Assembly (NCBI GenBank): GCA_028817255.1
Contig: JAPPQA010000026.1
Coordinates: 1-38,871, forward strand
Reading direction: 5' to 3'
DNA: 38,871 nucleotides
From: Gammaproteobacteria bacterium
GTDB lineage: Bacteria > Pseudomonadota > Gammaproteobacteria > Porifericomitales > Porifericomitaceae
Positions 27,618-38,781 of the stretch are shown here, piece by piece. The translations under genes and the position numbers were made by a program. Each line of letters opens with the position of its first letter. The stretch's first letter is position 1. The notes under the pieces are model-generated. The model worked only from the letters and a program-made list of their open reading frames with translations, ran no database searches and was not told the origin of the DNA.

Positions 27618-28913
27618 TCAAGGGATCGTCTGGTCAATCACCAAGTCCAGCGTCGCCCCCGAACCGGGGACGGCATCCGCGGGCCCGGCCTGCAAATCCC
27701 CGCTTTGCGGCCTGGCGTTTCCCGACTTCGAGACCCGCGCGCTTACCTGTACGCGGCGGAAACTGGAAAGGCGAGCGGTCGGCATCACCGAGGCGCTGTC
27801 GTCCAGGGTTACTTCCAGGGGCAGGTCGTCCACTCGCCGCCGCGTTGCCGCTACCGGCATGGGCGGCCCCTCCGGCGCCCGCGCGAATACGAATACGGTG
27901 TCGCCGGGGTCGGTAGCGGCAAGCAGGGAAGGAGCAATGGAGATTCGTACCTGAAGCGCTCCGGCATGAGCTTTGGCGGCGGCATCTGGAGAGGCGGCCC
28001 TGGTTGCCTGGGGCGCCGCGGGCGGCGCAATGGCCTCGGCAGGGGCCTCGGCAGGAGAATCCGCGGCCGGGGGTTCCCCGCCCGAGCGTTGTTCCACATG
28101 CGCGATCATGCGTTCCAGTCTGGCAAGCGCCTCGGGTTCGTTCCGTAAAAGCTCCGTGAGTTGTCGCCACCGATCCAACGCCAGGGGGAAATCCCCCGAT
28201 TCGAGCGCAACCAGCCCTGCCAGCCATAGCCCGTCCGCATTGCCCGGCTCCAGCGCCAGCGCCCGTTCTACCAGTTCCGCGGGGCGCCCGGTCAACTGGC
28301 CGTTATTCGCCATGCTGAGCGCGTTTGCGTACTGCAACAGGACTTCGGGGCGGTCTCCCCCCGTCAGGGAGTATGCTTGTTGCATTGCCGCCACGGCCTC
28401 GGAATAGCGTTCCAGGGTCATGTAGGAACGGGCCAGCAGCATCCAGTCGGCCAAGTCCCCCGGCTGTTGCGCAAGGCGCGCCGCCAAGGCCGCCACCATT
28501 TCTTCCACCGAAGGCAGCTCGCTTTTCGGGGCGGCGGCGTCCGGAACGGAGAAATCCGGGTTTCCCAGCTTGAAATACAGGCCAAACACCAATGCCGGCA
28601 ACAGACCCGCGAGACAGTAGGCCGACCACAGGAGGCGCGGCGGCCGTTTTTGCCGCTCCGGGCCCGCGGCGGCAGCGGCCTTGAGATCGCGCAGGAATTC
28701 CCGCTCAATCTCCAGGCGCATCGCGGAGAATTGCTCCTCGGCCAGCGTTCCCAGCCGCAGGTCGCGGTCCAGCGCGGAGATGCGGTCCTGGTAAATCGCG
28801 CGCAGGGCCCGCTCGCGGCTTCGTTCCTCCCCGCCCCGGCGGGGGCTCAACAGGCCGTAGAGCGCCGCCGCCAACACCGCCATCAGCAATATGCCGGCAT
28901 AGAACCAGAACAT
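27618..28913 (-). CDS. ccmI: Cytochrome c-type biogenesis protein CcmI (CycH)
   Basis: The ATG at 28913 gives MFWFYAGILLMAVLAAALYGL (TM1), a second TM segment, then periplasmic TPR repeats. Lies 2 nt after the ccmH stop. The track ORF start at 29255 overlaps ccmH. Confidence 0.8.
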   Translation of the reverse strand: MFWFYAGILLMAVLAAALYGLLSPRRGGEERSRERALRAIYQDRISALDRDLRLGTLAEEQFSAMRLEIEREFLRDLKAAAAAGPERQKRPPRLLWSAYCLAGLLPALVFGLYFKLGNPDFSVPDAAAPKSELPSVEEMVAALAARLAQQPGDLADWMLLARSYMTLERYSEAVAAMQQAYSLTGGDRPEVLLQYANALSMANNGQLTGRPAELVERALALEPGNADGLWLAGLVALESGDFPLALDRWRQLTELLRNEPEALARLERMIAHVEQRSGGEPPAADSPAEAPAEAIAPPAAPQATRAASPDAAAKAHAGALQVRISIAPSLLAATDPGDTVFVFARAPEGPPMPVAATRRRVDDLPLEVTLDDSASVMPTARLSSFRRVQVSARVSKSGNARPQSGDLQAGPADAVPGSGATLDLVIDQTIP

Positions 28914-28915
28914 TT

Positions 28916-29419
28916 CTAATCGGGGCTTTGCCCGCCGGAGTCGTCGCTCAGCAAGGTTTCCAGCCGGTTGCGTTCCTCGGGCGCCAATTCGGGTGCGGAC
29001 TGTGCCGCGCCGCGGTGCGCGGCGAAGCGCAAGACTGTCGCTAAGCCGCCCAGTAACAGGAGAAACGGGGCGAACCAGAGGAAATAGGTGGAGATTTTCA
29101 AGGGGGGGCGGTACAGGACAAAGTCCCCGTAGCGCTGCACCAAGTAATCGGCAACCTGCCGGTCGGTATAGCCCTCCTGCAACAGGCGATATACCTCGTC
29201 GCGCATGTCCTGGGCGAGGTCCGCGCCGGAATCGGACAGCGATTGGTTCTGGCACACCAGGCAGCGCAGTTCCTTGAGCAGGGTCTGGTAGCGCTGTTCC
29301 CGCTCGGGATCCTCGAAGGTGCGGGGCAGATCCGCGGCAGGAGACGCGGAGGAGAATGCGAGCGCCAACAGCAGGAGCCGTCCCGCGCGTCCCGCGAAGC
29401 GGGCGGCGCTAAGCCGCAT
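28916..29419 (-). CDS. ccmH: Cytochrome c-type biogenesis protein CcmH
   Basis: Signal peptide, LRCLVCQNQSLSDS redox motif, and a C-terminal TM segment. Confidence 0.88.
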   Translation of the reverse strand: MRLSAARFAGRAGRLLLLALAFSSASPAADLPRTFEDPEREQRYQTLLKELRCLVCQNQSLSDSGADLAQDMRDEVYRLLQEGYTDRQVADYLVQRYGDFVLYRPPLKISTYFLWFAPFLLLLGGLATVLRFAAHRGAAQSAPELAPEERNRLETLLSDDSGGQSPD

Positions 29420-29473
29420 TGTTCGGCAGGCCGCCGGCAATGCGAGCGGATTCGCGTAGCGAACGAAGCCGCT

Positions 29474-31438
29474 TCAAGCTTGCGTTCCGGTGGCCAGGGG
29501 CAAGCCCTGCGGCAGGTTGCGCCGTCGCCAGGCTGTCCGGTACCGGGGATCGGAGAGCGCCAGCGTTCCCCCCAGGCCCATCACCAGCGCCCCAAGCCAG
29601 ATCCAACGCACCAGCGGCTTGTAGTGCAGGCGAACGCTCCAGGCCCCGTTCCCGAGCGGTTCCCCCAGCGAGACGTAGAGATCGCGCAACAGCCCGCCGT
29701 CTATCCCCGCTTCGGTCATCACCGCGTCGCGCACCGAATAATTGCGCTTTTGCGAATGCAGCACGACCAACGTCCGCCCTTGGCGGGCAACGTGAAACTC
29801 CGCTTCCGTGGCGCGGTAATTGGGGCCGGGGACGCTCCGTAGCGCAGCCAGTCGGAATTCGTAACCGGCCAGCATCGCGCTGTCCCCGACCGCCATGCGC
29901 TTATGCGCCTCGTCGCTATGCAGGCTGCTTACCAGGATGCCGCACATGGTGACCGCCAGCCCCATATGGGCCAGGCACATTCCGTAGAAGCCGCTGGACA
30001 GGTTCTGGCGACCGGCGGCAAGCCGCAGCCGCAACGTTTGCAGCGTGCCAAGCGCGATCCAGGCCGCCATGCCCGCTCCGCAGGCTGTCGGCAGGACCCG
30101 GTCCTCCGTCAGCAGCGCCGCGCAGGCGACGCCTACCAGCACGCTTCCCCACAGCGCGGCGCGCAGGCGGGGCCACAAGGCGGAGGCCGCATCCGCGCGC
30201 CAGCGCACCAGCGGGCCCATGCCGACCAGCACGATCACCGGCGCCATCAGCGGCACGAATACGGCGTTGAAATACGGAGGACCTACGGACAGCTTGCCCA
30301 TGCCCAGCACTTCCGCCGCCAGCGGGTAGAGGGTGCCAAGCAGGATTGTCGCCGTGCTGACCGTCAGAGTGACCGCGTTGACCAGCAGGAAGGTCTCGCG
30401 GGACATGGGCCGGAACTTTGGCCCGGCCGGCGAATTCGGCGCCCGCCAGGCGAACAGCGCCAACGCGCCGCCCACAAAAACGGCGAGTAATCCCAGGATA
30501 AACACCCCCCGCTCCGGATCGGTGGCAAAGGCATGCACCGAGGTTAGCACCCCGGACCGCACCAGAAAGGTCCCCAGCAGGCTCAGGGCGAAGGCGCAGA
30601 TCGCCAGCAGCGCCGACCAGTTCCGGTAAACCCCTCGCTTGTCGGTGGCGGCCAGCGAATGGATCAGGGCTGTGCCGACCAGCCAAGGCATAAAGGATGC
30701 GTTTTCCACCGGGTCCCAGAACCACCAGCCTCCCCAGCCGAGTTCGTAGTAGGCCCACCAACTGCCCAGGGCGATCCCCAGCGTCAGGAACACCCAGGCG
30801 GCTATTGCCCAGGGGCGCGCCCAGCGCGCCCAGCCGAGGTCCAGACGTCCCTCCAGCAGCGCGGTGGCGGCAAAGGCAAAGGCCACGGCAAACCCTACAT
30901 AGCCCATGTAGAGCATGGGCGGGTGGAAGATCAGGCCCGGATCCTGTAACAGCGGGTTGAGGTCCGCTCCGTCCGGCGGGGCAGGGAAATGCCTTTCGAA
31001 CGGATTGGAGGTCAGGAGCATGAACAACAGGAATCCGACGCTGATAATGCCCAATATGCCGAGCAGGCGCGCGGCGAAGGCGTCCGGCAGGCTTCGGCTG
31101 AACATCGCTACCGCCAGCGTCCACAGGCCCAGCACCAGCGACCAGAGCAACAGGGAGCCCTCGTGCGCTCCCCAAACCGCCGAGACGCGGTAGCCCAGCG
31201 GCAGGGCGGAATTCGAATTCTGCGCCACGTAGAGCACGGAGAAGTCGTGGTTGACGAATGCCTGCGTCAAGGCGCCGAAGGCCAGCGCCAGGCAGACAAA
31301 CTGGATCGTTGCCATCGGCCGGGCCACGGCCATCCACGGCGCGACGCCGTACGCCGCGCCCATGAGCGGCAGGATTGCCTGGATCAGCGACGCGCCCAGC
31401 GCCAGCGCCAGGCAGAACAGCCCCAGCTCGACGATCAT
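29474..31438 (-). CDS. ccmF: Cytochrome c heme lyase subunit CcmF
   Basis: 654 aa, polytopic. Trp-rich motif WAYYELGWGGWWFWDPVEN. ATGA overlap with ccmE. Confidence 0.95.
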   Translation of the reverse strand: MIVELGLFCLALALGASLIQAILPLMGAAYGVAPWMAVARPMATIQFVCLALAFGALTQAFVNHDFSVLYVAQNSNSALPLGYRVSAVWGAHEGSLLLWSLVLGLWTLAVAMFSRSLPDAFAARLLGILGIISVGFLLFMLLTSNPFERHFPAPPDGADLNPLLQDPGLIFHPPMLYMGYVGFAVAFAFAATALLEGRLDLGWARWARPWAIAAWVFLTLGIALGSWWAYYELGWGGWWFWDPVENASFMPWLVGTALIHSLAATDKRGVYRNWSALLAICAFALSLLGTFLVRSGVLTSVHAFATDPERGVFILGLLAVFVGGALALFAWRAPNSPAGPKFRPMSRETFLLVNAVTLTVSTATILLGTLYPLAAEVLGMGKLSVGPPYFNAVFVPLMAPVIVLVGMGPLVRWRADAASALWPRLRAALWGSVLVGVACAALLTEDRVLPTACGAGMAAWIALGTLQTLRLRLAAGRQNLSSGFYGMCLAHMGLAVTMCGILVSSLHSDEAHKRMAVGDSAMLAGYEFRLAALRSVPGPNYRATEAEFHVARQGRTLVVLHSQKRNYSVRDAVMTEAGIDGGLLRDLYVSLGEPLGNGAWSVRLHYKPLVRWIWLGALVMGLGGTLALSDPRYRTAWRRRNLPQGLPLATGTQA

Positions 31439-31869
31439 GGAGGTTTGGCAGTGGATATGCCCAGCGCTTCGGCCACCTCTGGCGGCATATAATTTTCGTC
31501 GTGCTTGGCCAACACTTGGGATGCCTGGAACACGCCGTCTTCGCGCAGGCGCCCGTTGGCAATGATTCCCTGTTCCTCACGGAACAGGTCGGGCAGTACG
31601 CCTTCGTAGAGCACCACGATTTCCCGCTTCAGGTCCGTTACCGTAAAGCGTACGACAAGGCTGTCCTGGTCGCGCCGCACGCTGTCCTTTACCACCAGGC
31701 CGCCGACGCGGAAGTCTCTCCCGGAGGGCGCCTCTCCGGCCGCCACCTCCTGGGGCGTGTAGAAATACAGCAAATTTTCCTGAAAGGCCATGAGGATAAG
31801 CGCCGTACCCGCGGCAGTTGCGGCGAGGATCCCGCACACCATCCACTTCCGCCGGGTGCGCAAGTTCAT
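31435..31869 (-). CDS. ccmE: Heme chaperone CcmE
   Basis: The ATG at 31869 gives MNLRTRRKWMVCGILAA (membrane anchor). OB-fold region and heme-binding HDENYMPPEV motif. Confidence 0.9.
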   Translation of the reverse strand: MNLRTRRKWMVCGILAATAAGTALILMAFQENLLYFYTPQEVAAGEAPSGRDFRVGGLVVKDSVRRDQDSLVVRFTVTDLKREIVVLYEGVLPDLFREEQGIIANGRLREDGVFQASQVLAKHDENYMPPEVAEALGISTAKPP

Positions 31870-32024
31870 GGATTTTTCCGGTTTCGCAGGAGGCGCAATG
31901 CCCGCCTCTCGCGCCAGGCGGGCACCAGCGCATTTAACAGCAGCACCGCCGCTGTCACTCCGTAAGATGCCCATACGTAGGAGGCGTAGCCTCCCATGGC
32001 AAGAAAATCACGCACAGTTGTCAT
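31866..32024 (-). CDS. ccmD: Heme exporter protein CcmD
   Basis: 52 aa, MTTVRDFLAMGGYASYVWASYGVTAAVLLLNALVPAWRERR, typical CcmD. 4-nt overlaps with both ccmC and ccmE. Confidence 0.78.
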   Translation of the reverse strand: MTTVRDFLAMGGYASYVWASYGVTAAVLLLNALVPAWRERRALRLLRNRKNP

Positions 32025-32773
32025 CCCTGTGGCCCGGTTTCCCCCAGCGCCGCCTTGCGCACCCAGGCATGATTGCGTTCCCGGGTCAGGATGTCGCAAC
32101 GCGCCCGGATCAGCAGGGCATACGCATAGTAGCACATGAAGCCCGCCGCCATGCACAGCAGCGGCGTCAGCATGCTGGCATGGATGGCGGGCGCGGCGAG
32201 ACGGCTTACCGAGGCTCCCTGGTGCAGAGTATTCCACCATACCACCGAATAGTGAATGATCGGGATATTTACGATCCCCACCAAGCTTAGCACCGCCCCG
32301 GCGCGGGCCGCTGCCCTGCGGTCTTCGATTGCCGACTGCAACGCCATGTAGCCCAGGTAGAGGAACAGAAGGATCAACTCCGAACTCAGGCGCGCGTCCC
32401 ATACCCACCAGGCGCCCCAGGTCGGTTTGCCCCAGATCGATCCGGTGACCAGCGCCAGGAAAGTGAAAGCCGCGCCCAGCGGCGCGCTGTTGCTCGCCAC
32501 CACCTCCGCCAGCTTCAGTTTCCATATCAGCAACACTGCCCCGGCAGTGGCCATGACCATGTAAACGAATAGCGACATCCAGGCGCTGGGGACATGCACG
32601 TAGATAATGCGGAAGACGTCTCCCTGCAAATAATCCGGCGGCGCGAGCACCAGGCCCCCATACGCGCCGGCCGCCAACAGCAGCGCGCAGGCAAGTCCGA
32701 GCCATGCGCTTAATCGTCGGGAGAGAAAATAAAAATCCCGTAGCGACGCGTATTTGTAAAACCGTTGGAACAT
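32021..32773 (-). CDS. ccmC: Heme exporter protein CcmC
   Basis: The ATG at 32773 gives MFQRFYKYASLRDFY. RIIYVHVPSAW and the Trp-rich WGKPTWGAWWVWDARL motif are present. Confidence 0.92.
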   Translation of the reverse strand: MFQRFYKYASLRDFYFLSRRLSAWLGLACALLLAAGAYGGLVLAPPDYLQGDVFRIIYVHVPSAWMSLFVYMVMATAGAVLLIWKLKLAEVVASNSAPLGAAFTFLALVTGSIWGKPTWGAWWVWDARLSSELILLFLYLGYMALQSAIEDRRAAARAGAVLSLVGIVNIPIIHYSVVWWNTLHQGASVSRLAAPAIHASMLTPLLCMAAGFMCYYAYALLIRARCDILTRERNHAWVRKAALGETGPQG

Positions 32774-33474
32774 CAGCCGATCCGTACCCGCAGGGAAAGG
32801 GCGGCAGCCGGGGGCGCCAGTGCCAGGGCGAGGAGCAGCATGCCCCCCAGGAAATAGAATTCGGCAGTCGGCGCGCGGCCAGCCGCGGCATTTTGCACGG
32901 CTACGGTGGAGACGATCAACACCGGCACGTACAAAGGCAGGAGTAGCAGGGCGGGAAGGGCGCTGCCCTGCCGCAGGCCGACGACCAGGGCCATGGCCAC
33001 CGCGCCGACCAGGCAGAGCGTCGGCGTGCCTATGATCAAGGTAAGCAACAGGGGCGCCAGAGCCGCGGCCGGCAGGCGCAGCAGTATCCCCAGCAGGGCC
33101 GCGGCCAGGAGCAGCGGGAGCCCGCTCAGTATCCAGTGCGATACGACCCGGGTCGCCAACAATACGCTCAGCGGATGGGGCGAGAGCAACCACTGGTCCA
33201 GCGTGCCGTCCTCGAAATCGGGACGAAACAGTCCATCCAGCGACAGGCAGACCGCGAGCAGGGCAGCCACCCAGACGATGCCCGGCGCCGCCTGCCGCAA
33301 TAGGGCGCTCTCCGGTCCCAGGGCCAGCGGAAACAGGGCGCCCACCGCAACGAAGAATATCAGGGGGACGGCCGCTTCCGCGCGGCGGCGGGATGTCAGC
33401 AGGAATTCTCTAGTCAGCACTTCGAGACAGGCGCGGCCCAGCGAGGCGGCGGATGCGCCTGCCAAGGGCGCCAT
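32773..33474 (-). CDS. ccmB: Heme exporter permease CcmB
   Basis: 233 aa from the ATG at 33474 (alternative ATG at 33534). PLIFFVAVGALFPLALGPE, FEDGTLDQWLLSP. Six TM segments. Confidence 0.85.
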   Translation of the reverse strand: MAPLAGASAASLGRACLEVLTREFLLTSRRRAEAAVPLIFFVAVGALFPLALGPESALLRQAAPGIVWVAALLAVCLSLDGLFRPDFEDGTLDQWLLSPHPLSVLLATRVVSHWILSGLPLLLAAALLGILLRLPAAALAPLLLTLIIGTPTLCLVGAVAMALVVGLRQGSALPALLLLPLYVPVLIVSTVAVQNAAAGRAPTAEFYFLGGMLLLALALAPPAAALSLRVRIG

Positions 33475-33612
33475 GTTTGCGGGCGCCCGGGCCTGCAAAG
33501 GCGCCCGTTCCCGGGGTTCCTCGCCGCGCGTCATTGTTCTGCCGCGAGCCGGTTCGCCGCGCCCGGGTCGCCGCATGGATTTTCCGCAACGGCGCCCCAT
33601 TCGGGCAGAGGC

Positions 33613-33640
33613 TTGACAACCGGGAAACGGTCCATATAGC
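33613..33640 (+). promoter_or_regulatory. Candidate sigma70 promoter for the multiheme cytochrome module
   Basis: TTGACA (33613-33618), 16-nt spacer, TATAGC (33635-33640). It sits in the only AT-rich patch of the ccmB/cytochrome divergent region. A TACAAT also occurs at 33652-33657. Confidence 0.35.
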
Positions 33641-33700
33641 ATTTCATGAACTACAATGATAAACGATAAAGCCCTGGGCATACGATAGAGATGCCGAACA

Positions 33701-33723
33701 GCATATCGTGGGGCACGATATGC
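33701..33723. promoter_or_regulatory. Perfect 10-bp inverted repeat (candidate operator or leader hairpin)
   Basis: GCATATCGTG-ggg-CACGATATGC, with no mismatches. It lies about 60 nt downstream of the candidate -10. A related half-site, GCATACGATAG, occurs at about 33679. Confidence 0.4.
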
Positions 33724-33779
33724 GAAGCGTCGGTAGCGTATCTCCAGAGGTTCTATCGGTAAGTAGTGGAGGGCGCGCA

Positions 33780-36395
33780 ATGACAGGCGACAGCTGTATT
33801 GCGTTGCGAAATCGTTCTTGGTTGGGGCGCTTTGCGCGGGGCGGCGCATTCGCATTCGGGAGAATTCCGCGGGCGTCGCGCGCGTGGGTGGTGGCCTGCC
33901 TTTCGCTTGCAACCCGGTGGGCCGGGTTGCGGTTGCCGGTTCCGTTGCGGTTGTCGGTTCCCGTTCGGCGGCGCCGGAACCCGCGGGCCTTGCTGTTGGG
34001 TTCCCATAAACGCCGGGGTCATTCCTGCCTTTTGCCCTGTCTTTTGCTGTTGCCGTTGCCGCTCTTTGCCGATGCGGCTCTGGCGGCGCCGGAAACCGCG
34101 CCGTCGCAAGGGGGATGTGTCAGCTGCCACCAGGGCATTGAGCCGTTCTCGGATTTGCAGGGCCCCATGATGGCCGCCATCATGGCCATCGGCAGGGCCA
34201 ACCAGGACCCCCAGGGATGCGTGGTTTGCCATGGCGGGAATCCTGTTGCCGCGACCAAGGAAGAGGCGCACTCCGGGGCGCCTGTGGCGCTGAAAGAGGG
34301 CATAGGGCCACAGATGTTCTATCCGGATCCGGGCAGCGTATGGATTGCGGACCGCACCTGCGGGCAGTGTCATGTCGGTTATGCCGAACGCTTGACTAAA
34401 TCCCTGATGAACACCGAAGCCGGAAAATTGCAGGGTAATTTATGGTCTTGGGGCATGCTGGACGATCACAAAGTGATCTGGGGCAACTACGCCATCAAGG
34501 ACGAGGACGGCCCTGTTCCCAAGGTGGGCACGGATGCCTACAAGGAATACATGACGGCATACGTAAAATCGCACCCCGATCAAATGCCGAGCGAAATGAA
34601 GCAAGTGCCGGATGTCGATCTGAAGACGCTTGCCCAGCACCCGAATCAGGCCGGGTTTACGTACTCGCGCCAGCAATGCCAGCGTTGTCATGTGGGCGTA
34701 ACGGGACGCGAGAAACGGGGCGACTACCGCGGCACGGGATGTTCGGCCTGTCATGTTCCCTATAGCAACGAGGGTTTCTACGAAGGGGGCGATCCGACCA
34801 TCAGCAAGAAACAGCCCGGCAAGTTGCTGGTGCATCGGATGCAGGCGACCCGCAAGACCAAGGTCACGGTCGGCGATACTACCTACTCCGGCATCCCTTC
34901 GGAAACTTGCAATACCTGCCATAATCGCGGCAAACGGATCGGAGTGAGCTACCAGGGGATTATGGAGTTTCCTTACGGCAGTCCCTACAACGAACAGGGG
35001 GGCAAGCAGCCGCCGTTGCATACCAAGCAATATCTGTTCATTAAAGATGATCTGCATCATCAGATAGAAAGCCGGGAAGGCAACCCGAAGGGCGGTTTGC
35101 TGTGCCAGGATTGCCATACCACGATCGACATGCACGGCGACGGGAATTTGTTTGGGACTACCCTGGCCCAGGTTGAGATCGAATGTTCCGACTGTCATGG
35201 CACTCCCGATCGAGCCCCCTGGGAATTGCCGATCGGTTATGGCGAGGAGTTTCAGCAGCCCGTGTCGGCCAAGGCGCGCGGGTTGGCCGACAAGTTGACG
35301 CCTCATATGGCTATGGCGACAATCTACGATCCGGAAGATGGCTACCTTTTGACCGCGCGCGGCAATCCTTTCGGCAATGTGGTCAAGCGGGGCGAAAAGG
35401 TCGTCTTGCACTCGGCCTCCGGGCTGGATTTCGAGGTTCCCGTGCTTAAATCCATCAAGGAGCATGACTCGTGGAATTCCATTAATGGCAAGGTGGCGAT
35501 GTCGCGGGTTTCCAAGCATATGGATAGCCTGGAGTGTTACGCCTGTCATGCGGACTGGGCGCCGCAATGCTATGGCTGCCACATCACTGTGGATTATTCC
35601 AAGGGGAAAACCGATATAGACTGGATCAGGAATGCCAACTCGCGGCGGCCCAACGGTTTGACCGTGGACAACGATTTGGGCACCAATGGGCTTCCGGGGC
35701 CCGGAAAGGTATCCGAGACTCGTTCCTACCTGCGGTGGGAGACTCCTGTGCTGGGAATCAACGGCGAGGGCCGCGTTAGCCCCATGATGCCGGGATGCCA
35801 GGTGGTTACCACCGTGATCGATGCGCAAGGGAAGACGGTAGTTTGGAATAAATCCTGGGAAACGCCCAAGGGCAAGGGGATGGATTATGCCGCGGTCCAG
35901 CCGCATACGGCGGGGCGCAAGGCCCGCACTTGCGAAAGCTGTCACAATAATCCGAAAACCCTGGGCTACGGGATCGAGGATGGCCGCTTCCTGAAGGGGT
36001 ACGACAAAGGCTTTGTCGTAGATCTGGTGACGGCGGACGGGAAAGTGATCCCGCGGCAGTACCAGCAGCAGTCGTCTCCCGTGCCCGGCCTGGATCATGA
36101 TGTTTCCCAAATTGTTACCCGGGATGGGAAGCAGTTGGTCAGCGTCGGTTCGCACTGGCCTCTGACCGGGCCGTTGCCGGCCAAGATGCGGGAAAAGATA
36201 GAGCGCACCGGTCTTTGCATGGGCTGTCACCAGGAGATGACCAACGAAGAAATCTGGCCCAAGGTTAACTCCGAAGGTTGGGTGGATAACGAGGAGCACC
36301 GGCAGGTGATGAACCGCGCATTGCACGAGTACGCAAAGTCCGCTCCTCTGGAGCGCGCGGATGAAGACAAGGGCGAAGACAAGGACAATGAATAG
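33780..36395 (+). CDS. Secreted dodecaheme c-type cytochrome (12 CXXCH), family unassigned
   Basis: Twelve CXXCH motifs. First Cys at residues 137, 171, 218, 324, 345, 401, 466, 492, 610, 621, 742 and 837 of the ORF numbered from 33708. Sec-type signal: KRRGHSCLLPCLLLLPLPLFADAALA|APE. The start is uncertain. The ATG at 33780 has a GGAGG RBS but leaves about 70 aa before the signal peptide. TTG/CTG codons at 33945-33996 give a normal signal peptide. Confidence 0.85.
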   Translation: MTGDSCIALRNRSWLGRFARGGAFAFGRIPRASRAWVVACLSLATRWAGLRLPVPLRLSVPVRRRRNPRALLLGSHKRRGHSCLLPCLLLLPLPLFADAALAAPETAPSQGGCVSCHQGIEPFSDLQGPMMAAIMAIGRANQDPQGCVVCHGGNPVAATKEEAHSGAPVALKEGIGPQMFYPDPGSVWIADRTCGQCHVGYAERLTKSLMNTEAGKLQGNLWSWGMLDDHKVIWGNYAIKDEDGPVPKVGTDAYKEYMTAYVKSHPDQMPSEMKQVPDVDLKTLAQHPNQAGFTYSRQQCQRCHVGVTGREKRGDYRGTGCSACHVPYSNEGFYEGGDPTISKKQPGKLLVHRMQATRKTKVTVGDTTYSGIPSETCNTCHNRGKRIGVSYQGIMEFPYGSPYNEQGGKQPPLHTKQYLFIKDDLHHQIESREGNPKGGLLCQDCHTTIDMHGDGNLFGTTLAQVEIECSDCHGTPDRAPWELPIGYGEEFQQPVSAKARGLADKLTPHMAMATIYDPEDGYLLTARGNPFGNVVKRGEKVVLHSASGLDFEVPVLKSIKEHDSWNSINGKVAMSRVSKHMDSLECYACHADWAPQCYGCHITVDYSKGKTDIDWIRNANSRRPNGLTVDNDLGTNGLPGPGKVSETRSYLRWETPVLGINGEGRVSPMMPGCQVVTTVIDAQGKTVVWNKSWETPKGKGMDYAAVQPHTAGRKARTCESCHNNPKTLGYGIEDGRFLKGYDKGFVVDLVTADGKVIPRQYQQQSSPVPGLDHDVSQIVTRDGKQLVSVGSHWPLTGPLPAKMREKIERTGLCMGCHQEMTNEEIWPKVNSEGWVDNEEHRQVMNRALHEYAKSAPLERADEDKGEDKDNE

Positions 36396-36792
36396 AAATC
36401 GCGGAGCGAAGGCCGTTTTCGGTTTCGCGGGTCTGTTGTTATGCCTGCTCGGGAGTTCTGCCCGGATATGGGCGCAGGAGGACACGGGAGAGGTTTCCGA
36501 TTACACCGTGAGGCAGCTCCTTGCGCCGTGCACTGAGGGCGATAACGATTCCCGGTGGGGGGCCGTGGCCGAATCCGAGTGCGAACAATACATCAAGGGC
36601 TTTACCGATGCCCTGCTCATTTTCTCTGCCGACAGCGACGGTATTTGTTTGCCCGAGGCGGGGAACCGGCCGGATGAAATTCGCTGGGCCTTCATGAAGT
36701 GGGCCCACCGCCATTTTTCGGAGATCGACGAGTTATCCGCTGCCGAGGGCGTGCAAGCTACGTTGCAGGCATCTTTCGCCTGCGATAAGTAA
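36388..36792 (+). CDS. Small secreted four-cysteine protein (possibly Rap1a/Tai4-like fold), function unknown
   Basis: The ATG at 36388 lies inside AATGAATAG and so overlaps the cytochrome stop codon (translational coupling). Signal peptide MNRNRGAKAVFGFAGLLLCLLGSSARIWA|QED. The mature protein is about 105 aa with 4 Cys, including CEQYIKGFTDA and ICLPE. Confidence 0.65.
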   Translation: MNRNRGAKAVFGFAGLLLCLLGSSARIWAQEDTGEVSDYTVRQLLAPCTEGDNDSRWGAVAESECEQYIKGFTDALLIFSADSDGICLPEAGNRPDEIRWAFMKWAHRHFSEIDELSAAEGVQATLQASFACDK

Positions 36793-36835
36793 GTAAATTT
36801 CGTTTTGCGGCCTTTGTTGAGGTTCTTCACGCCTT

Positions 36836-37993
36836 ATGCGATTCATGACTGCCCCGATGCTCGCTGTTGCGACATTAACCGCAACCTTTTCTCCGGCGCA
36901 GCATACGTGGGCGGAAGAACCGGACCCCCAACTCCGGGTATCCGGAGATTTGCGGTTCCGCGCGGAATGGGATTGGGATTCGCGGCGCGCGAACGGCGCC
37001 AAGCGGGATGACCGGGGGCGCGCCAGAATTCGTGCCCGGATCGCTGTTCGGATCGACCCCAACGATCAGTTCGAATTTTTGACGCGATTTCGCACGGGTT
37101 CTCGCGCCAGCCAGCAATCGCCTCATGTCACGGTGGCCGATTTCAGCGGCAACCCTACCGGCACGCAGGAAGTCGTAATTGACAAGTGGTATGTGAAGGC
37201 AAAAGGCAAGGTGGCGGAGGCCAGGGCCTGGCTTTGGGGGGGGCGCAACAGCCTGCCATTTTGGAAGCAAAACGAACTGTTGTGGGACGATGACGTTACC
37301 CCGGCCGGCGTGGCAGGGGGCGCCGAGTTCGATTTGAGAGCGGGAAAGTTGGCGGTTGCGGCGGGTTACCTGTTGTTGCCGGACGGCATAGATCATTTTC
37401 ACGGCAACGGGGTGCCGGTCCAGTTCGCCTATTCCGGGGGCCTCGAGGAGCTGCAATGGCATATGGCCGCTGGCGTTTTGCTTATAGACGGCGAGCCCGG
37501 CGCGCGTAATCTTCGCATGGGGAACGGCGCGCGAGACTACACGATCTGGAATGGTTCCCTGCAGGTCGTACGGAAGTTTCTAGGCGTTCCGGCTATTTTT
37601 GGCGCGGACGTATATAGCAACAGCGAAGGTTATTCCGCCGGGGAAATCGCGCGGGATTTTTCCGCGGCATCCGGAGTGGGCAAGGACGACACCGATGGCT
37701 TTGTGCTTTCGCTGCGGGTGAAGAACCTGGGCAACGAGGGGCAATGGCAGTTGGGATACTATTATGCGGATATCGAAGCCCTTGCGGTTCACGCATCCTA
37801 CGCGCAGGACGATTGGATGCGCTGGGGTTCGAGTTCGCAAACGGATGCCAGCGATTTCAAGGGGCATGAATTCCGGGTCGGCTGGTCGCCGATGAAAAAT
37901 TGGCAATTGCTGGCCCGGTTATACACCGTCGAGGCGCAAAACAGCCCGCAGGACGGAAACCGCTTCCGCTTCGATATCAACTGGAAATTTTGA
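36836..37993 (+). CDS. Outer-membrane beta-barrel protein (putative porin)
   Basis: Signal peptide (MRFMTAPMLAVATLTATFSPAQHTWA|EE). Alternating amphipathic beta-strand pattern throughout (LRFRAEWDWDS, RARIRARIAVRID, WQLGYYYADIE). C-terminal OMP signature RFRFDINWKF with terminal Phe. No CXXCH motifs. Confidence 0.75.
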   Translation: MRFMTAPMLAVATLTATFSPAQHTWAEEPDPQLRVSGDLRFRAEWDWDSRRANGAKRDDRGRARIRARIAVRIDPNDQFEFLTRFRTGSRASQQSPHVTVADFSGNPTGTQEVVIDKWYVKAKGKVAEARAWLWGGRNSLPFWKQNELLWDDDVTPAGVAGGAEFDLRAGKLAVAAGYLLLPDGIDHFHGNGVPVQFAYSGGLEELQWHMAAGVLLIDGEPGARNLRMGNGARDYTIWNGSLQVVRKFLGVPAIFGADVYSNSEGYSAGEIARDFSAASGVGKDDTDGFVLSLRVKNLGNEGQWQLGYYYADIEALAVHASYAQDDWMRWGSSSQTDASDFKGHEFRVGWSPMKNWQLLARLYTVEAQNSPQDGNRFRFDINWKF

Positions 37994-38416: not shown

Positions 38417-38501
38417 GGAGGGGTACCCAAGCGGCCAACGGGGGCAGACTGTAAATCTGCTGGCTTTGTCCTTCGTAGGTTCGAATCCTACCCCCTCCAC
38501 C
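38417..38501 (+). tRNA. tRNA-Tyr (anticodon GTA)
   Basis: Hand-folded cloverleaf. Acceptor GGAGGGG/CCCCTCC, anticodon arm GCAGA-CTGTAAA-TCTGC, long variable arm, T-arm GTAGG-TTCGAAT-CCTAC. Confidence 0.9.
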
Positions 38502-38554
38502 GTCGGAGAGGCGCGTATTTTTTAAGACTCGGACGAGTGTTCTTGCCGAGGCAT

Positions 38555-38625
38555 GCGGGTGTAGTTCAATGGCAGAACCTCAGCCTTCCAAGCTGAAGAT
38601 GTGGGTTCGATCCCCATCGCCCGCT
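38555..38625 (+). tRNA. tRNA-Gly (anticodon TCC)
   Basis: Acceptor GCGGGTG/CGCCCGC (one G-U pair), anticodon loop CTTCCAA, T-loop TTCGATC. 71 nt; CCA is not encoded. Confidence 0.9.
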
Positions 38626-38705
38626 CGAGGGGCCCGCTTGAGCAGCGGCCGCAACGGTTGGCGGAGCGCTGGAGAGCGGGATGTGGGACGAAGCAGGTAT
38701 AGCAT

Positions 38706-38781
<76 letters not shown>

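Follow-up and report, generated by a model that had tools for sequence, protein, structure and literature searches.

A 12-haem cytochrome of the ExtM superfamily and its Rap1a-fold partner: a candidate anaerobic periplasmic oxidoreductase of marine Alpha- and Gammaproteobacteria

The ext cluster of Geobacter sulfurreducens (extHIJKLMNOPQS) encodes a rhodanese-like protein (ExtH), a porin-like protein needed for selenite and tellurite reduction (ExtI), and a small protein (ExtJ) (PMC5877670). ExtM (GSU2935, NF040943) is a 12-haem c-type cytochrome of this cluster, and it has no demonstrated activity. In the E. coli-type Nrf system (nrfA with nrfEFG), a multihaem periplasmic gene is linked to lyase genes of the CcmF/H/I type, without ccmE, under an FNR-type box. 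The idrABP1P2 island is recognized by an AioAB-like molybdo-enzyme together with two cytochrome c peroxidases (Reyes-Umana et al., PMC8692401). We analyzed a stretch of 38,871 nucleotides from a gammaproteobacterial assembly (contig JAPPQA010000026.1, forward strand; hereafter the window), in which genes for a 12-haem cytochrome, a small Rap1a-fold protein, and an outer-membrane porin lie next to a ccm operon. Judged from sequence, the first two genes may encode a multihaem oxidoreductase that acts anaerobically in the periplasm on a small anion, with the porin as an optional substrate channel; we give this reading about an even chance of being right. The kind of system, a multihaem periplasmic oxidoreductase with a dedicated lyase in the ExtM superfamily, is already known, and what is distinctive is the abundance of the family, its conservation, and a signature that couples one cysteine to haem 10.

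The three genes of the module are co-oriented on the plus strand and encode secreted products. Their features are as follows.

33780..36395, plus strand: gene 1, 12-haem c-type cytochrome (public gene call; reading frame open from 33708)
35568..35582, plus strand: haem-10 attachment motif CYGCH, 6 residues after the haem-9 motif CYACH
35790..35804, plus strand: PGCQV with the lone non-haem cysteine of the mature protein (Cys603, counted from 33990)
36388..36792, plus strand: gene 2, small Rap1a-fold protein (alternative start at 36361)
36836..37993, plus strand: gene 3, 16-strand outer-membrane porin of family PF16930 (Porin_5), separated from gene 2 by 43 nt
36947..37042, plus strand: Arg-rich first two barrel strands (DLRFRAEWDWDSRRANGAKRDDRGRARIRARI; model strands E33-47 and E60-73)

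All three products begin with hydrophobic, signal-like segments, and none has a lipobox that is conserved in its homologues. The ATG of gene 2 lies inside AATGAATAG at 36387-36395 and overlaps the stop codon of gene 1. The initial annotation of this DNA had described three secreted products encoded in one orientation, the first of them with 12 CXXCH motifs, the AATGAATAG overlap, the 43-nt gap, and a ccmBCDEFHI operon lying back-to-back with the module, and all of these were confirmed. Sequence searches returned hundreds to thousands of homologues for each of the three proteins, so the features of the three genes are not due to chance.

The open reading frame (ORF) at 33708..36395 (plus strand) contains exactly 12 CXXCH motifs and one extra cysteine. 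Pfam and NCBIfam profiles were searched with the proteins of the module, and NCBIfam matches were considered to E <= 1. Such profile searches had been proposed with the initial annotation; they placed the small protein in Rap1a (PF18602) and the barrel in PF16930, but they gave no family assignment for the cytochrome, whose best NCBIfam match, ExtM (NF040943), reached 236.5 bits against a cut-off of 800 (profile positions 128-510). An exhaustive search found 1344 relatives among 50%-identity representatives, including 234 at E < 1e-30. One of these relatives, P0244, is a true ExtM equivalog (826 bits), and the window cytochrome aligns with it colinearly at 28% identity (BLASTP E = 3e-67; residues 40-661 against 28-520), with the haem motifs in register. 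On sequence grounds the window cytochrome is therefore a distant, larger member of the ExtM superfamily and not an equivalog, because it is colinear with P0244 but scores under the cut-off. The earlier description of the module as unassigned and secreted stands. The cytochrome is not an orphan.

Alignment with the ExtM equivalog shows haem motifs 1-11 and the cysteine of PGCQ to be common to both proteins, and the window protein is about 150-180 residues longer. Like the window, the ext cluster combines the cytochrome with a porin-like protein (ExtI) and a small protein (ExtJ) (PMC5877670). The porin and small protein of the window had no NCBIfam match at E <= 1, and hence no relationship to ExtI or ExtJ was detected, in a library whose content of ExtI and ExtJ models was not checked. 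Unlike the ext cluster, the window has no genes for a rhodanese, the ExtKL selenoprotein, ExtN, or Rieske/cytochrome b proteins. The hosts also differ; the family of the window cytochrome is found in marine Alpha- and Gammaproteobacteria, where it has its own fnr-ccmFHI operon.

Homologues of the cytochrome form more than 3000 clusters at 90% identity, and their source names are only “cytochrome C” or “hypothetical protein”. The best 120 matches are 69-79% identical over about 775 amino acids and are spread across Alpha- and Gammaproteobacteria. Among species-representative genomes, 196 loci encode a cytochrome relative, and 80 of them were kept for neighborhood counts and compared by tblastn and clustering of ORFs. 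These 80 loci come from marine Alphaproteobacteria (Rhodobacteraceae, Roseibium, Rhodospirillales, and Kiloniellales) and Gammaproteobacteria (Thiotrichales, Beggiatoa-like bacteria, Woeseia, and Acidiferrobacter), and their cytochromes are 65-79% identical across the two classes. In an alignment of 110 family members, invariance extends to every one of the 12 CXXCH motifs and to some 250 further columns, suggesting an enzyme-like constraint. The mature protein carries 12 haems in about 770 residues (about 64 residues per haem) and has large beta-rich regions without haem. Pfam gave only generic matches to c7, c3, and MtrC domains (MtrC/MtrF domain II/IV at 44 bits), and the OmcA/MtrC model of NCBIfam reached 28 bits, below its cut-off of 209.

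Several described multihaem families were tried and rejected. Membership in the Otr, MccA, or HAO families was rejected because Pfam and NCBIfam gave no match to them at E <= 1 and every motif is CXXCH, and NrfA was rejected because there is no CXXCK motif and no NrfA family match in either library. The proteins of the Tenderiales Uet undecahaem cluster and the Geobacter dodecahaem cytochrome OmcB are distinct from the window cytochrome. The TsdA, SoxXA, and DsrJ families likewise had no Pfam or NCBIfam match to it, and a plasmid search with the cytochrome returned no match.

Haems with His/Cys ligation are the reactive centers of TsdA and SoxXA. In the window cytochrome, the single cysteine outside the haem motifs, Cys603, is invariant in the 110 aligned family members. 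Co-variation of this cysteine with the haem-10 motif was examined in 72 superfamily representatives covering both sites: 47 have both, 18 have neither, one has the cysteine alone, and six have haem 10 alone, four of these with Gly instead in an unchanged PG-x-Q context. By Fisher's exact test, p = 5.5e-11, a figure inflated by relatedness, though the replaced motifs are diverse. The ExtM equivalog P0244 keeps both haem 10 and the PGCQ cysteine. This pattern suggests that Cys603 probably serves haem 10 as its distal axial ligand or is joined to it by a cross-link.

Gene 2 encodes a small protein that matches Pfam Rap1a (PF18602) over the entire profile (positions 1-90 of 90; E = 3e-12; 47.3 bits against a gathering threshold of 27.7). 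Its homologues are about 125 amino acids long and share four invariant cysteines, which probably form two disulfides, and the motif PCxEGDNDSRxG...ExECEQY. Searches of the PDB found no detectable sequence similarity to solved structures. A Rap1a-fold gene lies directly downstream of the cytochrome gene in 75 of the 80 loci. Like gene 2, the Rap1a/Tai4 immunity proteins of type VI secretion systems (T6SS) are small and periplasmic, with PF18602 extending over the whole mature protein, but gene 2 adjoins a cytochrome gene rather than an amidase effector and has its own four invariant cysteines and acidic motif. A role in T6SS immunity was rejected, as the constant neighbor is a cytochrome and no effector or T6SS family occurs among the neighbors. 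The product of gene 2 is most likely a small subunit or an assembly factor. In a cytochrome subfamily with 57-59% identity, a tetratricopeptide repeat protein and a 206-aa protein stand where the Rap1a-fold partner would be.

Genes for regulation and haem attachment are common beside the cytochrome gene. A Crp/FNR-family gene is immediately upstream and divergent in 51 of the 80 loci, ccmF is within 10 kb in 45, and the most common layout (about 35 loci) is ccmI-ccmH-ccmF-fnr pointing away from cytochrome and partner. Seven loci have an alternative layout with ccmE-ccmF-ccmG-ccmH-ccmI downstream. In at least 23 of the 35 loci, the stop codon of fnr reaches into the start of ccmF, with an overlap of 4 nt, indicating that fnr-ccmF-ccmH-ccmI is an operon. 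The adjacent regulator has the FNR-type CxxCxxxxC pattern and a central cysteine. When TTGAT-N4-ATCAA was used as the FNR box model and scored out of 10, boxes scoring at least 9 were found upstream of the cytochrome in 35 of 81 regions, compared with 14 of 400 random background windows from the same loci.

The CcmF, CcmH, and CcmI proteins of these loci match the CcmF/NrfE, NrfF, and CcmI/NrfG models, and the family layout fnr-ccmF-ccmH-ccmI has no ccmE. By analogy, these genes would provide a dedicated, anoxia-induced haem lyase, because lyase sets that lack ccmE and have an oxygen-sensor paralogue of their own at the front follow the NrfEFG pattern. The Nrf system itself is different; the window cytochrome has 12 haems rather than five and no similarity to NrfA, there is no NrfH or NrfBCD quinol dehydrogenase, and the neighbor in the window is a full ccmBCDEFHI operon without a regulator. 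The window is thus a variant of the family locus pattern. The proximity to ccm genes that was pointed out in the initial annotation stands as a back-to-back arrangement, but it goes beyond adjacency, as most relatives carry a presumably dedicated fnr-ccmFHI operon beside the gene, and in roughly half of the genomes an FNR box separates this operon from the divergent pair. Pfam enrichment among the 110 nearest non-redundant neighbor ORFs revealed nothing beyond core genes. One relative with 44% identity (L171:3116-8099) has neither haem 10 nor the lone cysteine and is followed directly downstream by a fused ResB-CcsA (system II) synthase; linkage to maturation genes thus appears to be a trait of the superfamily. 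By its sequence features, a locus with an FNR regulator, a lyase, a 12-haem protein, and a partner has the hallmarks of an uncharacterized respiratory enzyme.

The product of gene 3 is a barrel protein of 385 amino acids without cysteine. It has a partial match to the Pfam family PF16930 (“putative porin”; 48.1 bits against 22), which is present in all 120 porin homologues listed. An AlphaFold2 model with a predicted local distance difference test score (pLDDT) of 87.9 has about 16 strands, and its best Foldseek matches are 16-strand diffusion porins, namely OmpM1 (template modeling [TM] score 0.61-0.76), OmpF/OmpC, OprB, and OprO/OprP (TM about 0.52), with E-values down to 1e-14. Nine arginines (R40, R42, R57, R60, R62, R64, R66, R68, and R84) on strands 1-3 are invariant and alternate in an alignment of 34 homologues. 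This alternation suggests that they face the lumen and line the pore, and such an arginine run would be compatible with an anion-selective pore.

The two nearest relatives of the cytochrome have the same cytochrome-partner-porin order as the window, and the second cytochrome subfamily (57-59% identity) has the same porin in a divergent layout. The nearest porins that are not linked to such a cytochrome (53-54% identity) lie directly downstream of genes for two cytochrome c peroxidases, a Rieske protein, and an AioA-like molybdopterin protein. These clusters carry the idrABP1P2 signature as defined by PMC8692401. Islands of the kind known from Pseudomonas sp. SCT as well as Denitromonas sp. IR-12 (PMC8692401) share a PF16930 porin clade with the window at this level of identity, and both systems, as we read the window, would be periplasmic and serve anaerobic oxyanion metabolism. 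They differ in the catalytic protein, which in Idr is a molybdopterin/Rieske enzyme accompanied by two di-haem peroxidases, none of which is encoded in the window. In a neighbor-joining tree, the window porin falls in a clade whose known contexts are either idr-linked (L086, L087, and L091) or cytochrome-linked (L084 and L092). Among 80 porin-centered metagenome loci, a cytochrome relative is adjacent in eight, idr genes are present in about seven, and a transglutaminase-like gene is present in 19.

The two systems are physically joined in one metagenome-assembled genome (MAG) of a “Proteobacteria bacterium” (L011:9875-20667), where cytochrome, partner, porin, X, idrP, idrP, idrB, and idrA follow each other on one strand; X is a 262-aa protein with a weak CarboxypepD_reg-like match. 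This is the only one of the 80 cytochrome loci that joins the cytochrome module and idr. Because of this locus and the divergent porin in the 57-59% subfamily, the porin is regarded as a partner that recurs with the cytochrome but is optional, and that is shared with a periplasmic oxyanion reductase. The three genes had been put forward as a module, to be checked by co-occurrence; across the 80 loci the cytochrome and Rap1a-fold pair bears this out, but the barrel does not, even though it recurs in the closest relatives and in the second subfamily. The idr-type clusters at L086:1-8255, L087:162-7158, and L091:634-9059 have a PF16930 porin directly downstream or nearby, followed in L086 by moaA and tatA. 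At L156:8001-11437 and L160:1190-9548, PF16930 porins occur in a further redox context, with a cytochrome bd subunit I-like membrane protein and a c-type cytochrome of 800 aa, which has a domain resembling ethylbenzene dehydrogenase (EB_dh-like), as neighbors.

In the mechanism that we propose, the 12-haem ExtM-superfamily cytochrome and an obligate small, disulfide-rich Rap1a-fold subunit would form a soluble periplasmic redox enzyme. Across the family, this enzyme would be produced under anoxia via an FNR-type regulator and matured by its own NrfEFG-like CcmFHI lyase. Eleven haems would serve as the electron path, and haem 10 with the invariant cysteine (as axial ligand or cross-link) would be the likely reactive center. 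The substrate would be a small inorganic anion, which in the window may reach the periplasm through the co-transcribed, Arg-lined 16-strand porin; a dedicated Arg-rich porin could have been added where the general outer membrane is limiting, as here. Electrons would probably come from the quinol pool through bc1 and soluble cytochromes, because the module encodes no quinol dehydrogenase. Observation supplies the gene anatomy, the conserved synteny, the FNR boxes, the homology to ExtM, the co-variation of cysteine and haem 10, and the fold and contexts of the porin; we infer the location in the periplasm, a catalytic rather than purely electron-carrying role, ligation by the cysteine, selectivity for anions, and the reaction's direction.

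Three groups of substrates are candidates. Iodate or other iodine species are suggested by the link between the porin and idr, a sulfur or selenium oxyanion by the Cys-haem pair and the neighbors of ExtM, and nitrite by the Nrf-like layout and nap neighbors. A napA gene that scores above the equivalog cut-off is divergent from and adjacent to the cytochrome gene in two Thiotrichales MAGs (L062:6364-9111 and L070:1-2545) and lies about 7 kb away in Tropicimonas (L037:784-3273). At L168:1266-5631, genes for TusA and a faintly DsrE-like protein precede an ExtM equivalog, which is followed by a 365-aa (ExtN-like) protein and a Rieske protein, with a TauE-family exporter nearby; this neighborhood hints at sulfur trafficking. 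A cytochrome relative with 34% identity sits with Rieske/cytochrome b and further multihaem genes. A bolder proposal, which we consider rather improbable, is that the pair represents an oxyanion reductase class with a Cys-ligated haem on a 12-haem scaffold and its own FNR-controlled lyase, catalyzing Mo-independent reduction of iodate or hypoiodous acid (HOI), or respiration of thiosulfate, tetrathionate, or selenite, and widespread in Alpha- and Gammaproteobacteria of marine sediments.

A number of observations weigh against the proposed mechanism. When the PDB was searched by sequence and by profile with all three proteins, nothing useful emerged, and no solved structure related to the cytochrome was found. 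Its AlphaFold2 model is of moderate confidence (pLDDT 64.8), a Foldseek search of the PDB with this model gave nothing below E = 4, and haem ligation could not be read from it because of this low score and because it contains no haems. Invariant His residues outside the motifs are numerous enough for nearly all haems to be bis-His ligated. The literature searched (ExtM, dodecahaem, Rap1a with multihaem, and Roseobacter/Labrenzia multihaem cytochromes) contained no paper that describes the cytochrome family. As all 12 motifs are canonical CXXCH, there is no evident reason for a dedicated lyase. The window itself has neither an FNR-like regulator nor an FNR box (the best upstream box scores 7 of 10), and its ccmBCDEFHI operon looks housekeeping and lies in a core chromosomal region. 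Only three of the 80 cytochrome loci (L011, L014, and L056) have the barrel, and PF16930 porins also occur beside unrelated genes, such as the transglutaminase-like gene. The clues to the substrate diverge three ways, toward idr, nap, and sulfur-transfer genes. The main rival to the catalytic reading is that the cytochrome is purely an electron carrier or store, a 12-haem wire or capacitor between bc1 or quinol dehydrogenases and periplasmic reductases (Idr, Nap, Nos, and others) under anoxia, with the small protein stabilizing it and the porin an unrelated neighbor. A scaffold of many haems that weakly matches c7, c3, and MtrC domain II/IV would suit a carrier, as would conserved distal His residues about as numerous as the haems, the lack of a known catalytic motif, the clustering of distant relatives with Rieske/cytochrome b modules and other multihaem proteins (also ExtO/ExtP, PMC5877670), and the occasional presence of napA or idr next to the gene. 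However, the low haem density, the large beta-rich regions, and about 70% identity between classes would be unusual for simple carriers, and no partner reductase is conserved in the neighborhood. An invariant cysteine tied to one haem, a presumably dedicated lyase and regulator, and a porin that recurs in two subfamilies with different layouts suggest substrate chemistry instead; we consider the carrier possible, though on the unlikely side.

The catalytic reading can itself be narrowed to single substrates, and each of these versions is less probable. In one of them, which is unlikely, the module is specific for iodine, the pair being an Idr-independent iodate or HOI reductase and the porin an iodate channel. 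The clade of the window porin has idrP1P2BA or the cytochrome as its known contexts, its 53-54%-identical relatives lie directly downstream of idrA, the L011 locus joins both systems, and the family is marine in distribution; on the other hand, idr is within 10 kb in only one of the 80 cytochrome loci, porins lack strict substrate specificity, the ExtM family is not known to have any iodine chemistry, and the iodate papers searched mention neither a porin nor a cytochrome of the window type. An enzyme for sulfur or selenium oxyanions (thiosulfate, tetrathionate, sulfite, or selenite) with a His/Cys haem as in TsdA, SoxXA, and DsrJ seems just as doubtful. It would agree with the coupling of Cys603 to haem 10, with the rhodanese (ExtH), TusA, DsrE-like, and TauE genes that adjoin ExtM relatives, with the requirement for ExtI in selenite and tellurite reduction, and with hosts that include sulfur oxidizers (Thiotrichales, Beggiatoa-like bacteria, Acidiferrobacter, and Woeseia), but the cysteine ligation is only inferred, the sequence does not resemble TsdA or SoxA, sulfur-transfer genes are not conserved beside the window subfamily, and the ExtM evidence comes from a relative with 28% identity. 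FNR control, lyase genes of the NrfE/F/G type, and the napA genes noted above would fit an Nrf-like reductase of nitrite, NO, or hydroxylamine. This is distinctly unlikely, given the missing CXXCK motif, the lack of similarity to the NrfA, Otr, and HAO families, and a nap association in only three of the 80 loci.

A last alternative is a porin-cytochrome conduit that carries electrons across the outer membrane to or from Fe, Mn, or an electrode. MtrCAB, MtoAB, PioAB, Geobacter Pcc, and Cyc2 likewise combine a multihaem cytochrome gene with a neighboring gene for an outer-membrane barrel, and the weak match to MtrC/MtrF domain II/IV (44 bits) points the same way. However, MtrB/PioB barrels have about 26 strands and 650-700 amino acids, MtrA/DmsE decahaem proteins have about 300-350 amino acids, and no MtrA/DmsE model matched the cytochrome. 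The barrel is not a Cyc2 either, which would have a fused N-terminal CXXCH haem domain, and an MtrB-type sheath and Cyc2 are excluded because the barrel has no match to MtrB/PioB (NCBIfam, E <= 1) and no cysteine. The barrel is dispensable in most relatives, being missing from 77 of the 80 loci, and its porin clade is also used by clusters for soluble molybdo-enzymes. The initial annotation had itself doubted that cytochrome and barrel belong to MtrAB, Pcc, or Cyc2, and size and haem density agree; it had also seen no lipoprotein cytochrome partner, and none is present. The barrel is not a sheath for the cytochrome but a 16-strand diffusion porin whose closest relatives accompany molybdo-enzyme iodate reductase clusters, and nothing points to the use of Fe(II) or electrodes. 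Of the undescribed electron-transfer system that it had proposed, the periplasmic version with a dedicated substrate porin is favored, and the extracellular one is not. The trans-outer-membrane conduit is already largely refuted, and we consider it very improbable.

The family is abundant, occurring in many marine sediment MAGs and in cultured strains of the Roseobacter group. Should the pair reduce iodate, a sulfur or selenium oxyanion, or nitrite, it would be a missing catalyst for element cycling in anoxic marine environments and would give a first functional handle on the ExtM superfamily. Cultured carriers suitable for genetics are Roseibium aggregatum, Aliiruegeria spp., Tropicimonas spp., and Shimia abyssi. 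Two by-products of the analysis are that some iodate reductase clusters come with a dedicated porin of PF16930, which the iodate papers searched do not mention, and that, throughout the superfamily, a single cysteine goes together with one haem.

The start of gene 1 is ambiguous. Public gene calls take the ATG at 33780, which has GGAGG 8 nt upstream, and the N-termini of homologues align only from about TTG 33990/33996, just 5' of the signal segment LLPCLLLLPLPLFADAALA, which is followed by APE. The conserved part of the product thus begins near TTG 33990, and the signal peptide ends in ...FADAALA before APE. Between the ATG at 33780 and the conserved signal peptide (33780-33990) lie about 70 Arg-rich, non-conserved codons, and positions 33926-33961 in this stretch hold two copies of an 18-nt tandem repeat, GTTGCGGTTGCCGGTTCC. 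The nearest relatives show no conservation of this leader. This stretch may be a long leader or an N-terminal extension.

Other features of the window are the following.

33613..33642, plus strand: promoter-like TTGACA-18-TAGCAT upstream of gene 1 (10 of 12 consensus matches; consensus match only)
27618..33576, minus strand: ccmB-C-D-E-F-H-I operon, divergent from gene 1
27618-28913, minus strand: ccmI
28916-29419, minus strand: ccmH
29474-31438, minus strand: ccmF
31435-31869, minus strand: ccmE
31866-32024, minus strand: ccmD
32021-32773, minus strand: ccmC
32773-33576, minus strand: ccmB
38417-38781, plus strand: tRNA-Tyr(GTA), tRNA-Gly(TCC), and tRNA-Thr(GGT), directly after the module

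Position 33613, which had been given as the start of the module, is the promoter-like site and not a gene start. The remainder of the window consists of core chromosomal genes (purM-like, suhB, pilS, sucC, nadE, bamD, clpB, pilB/C, secA, and lpxC). The module recurs with all three genes in a close relative (L084), where it adjoins genes for a phage-type integrase and an excisionase. The module may be mobile, because tRNA genes adjoin it in the window and integrase and excisionase genes do so in L084.

Within the operon itself, ccmA is absent upstream of ccmB and ccmG is absent between ccmF and ccmH. The called ccmB product is 267 aa long and has an N-terminal extension. The ccmI gene of the window is four codons shorter than that of a public contig (L081:3827-5134) which is otherwise nearly identical and carries the same cytochrome, and this difference points to strain-level indel variation.

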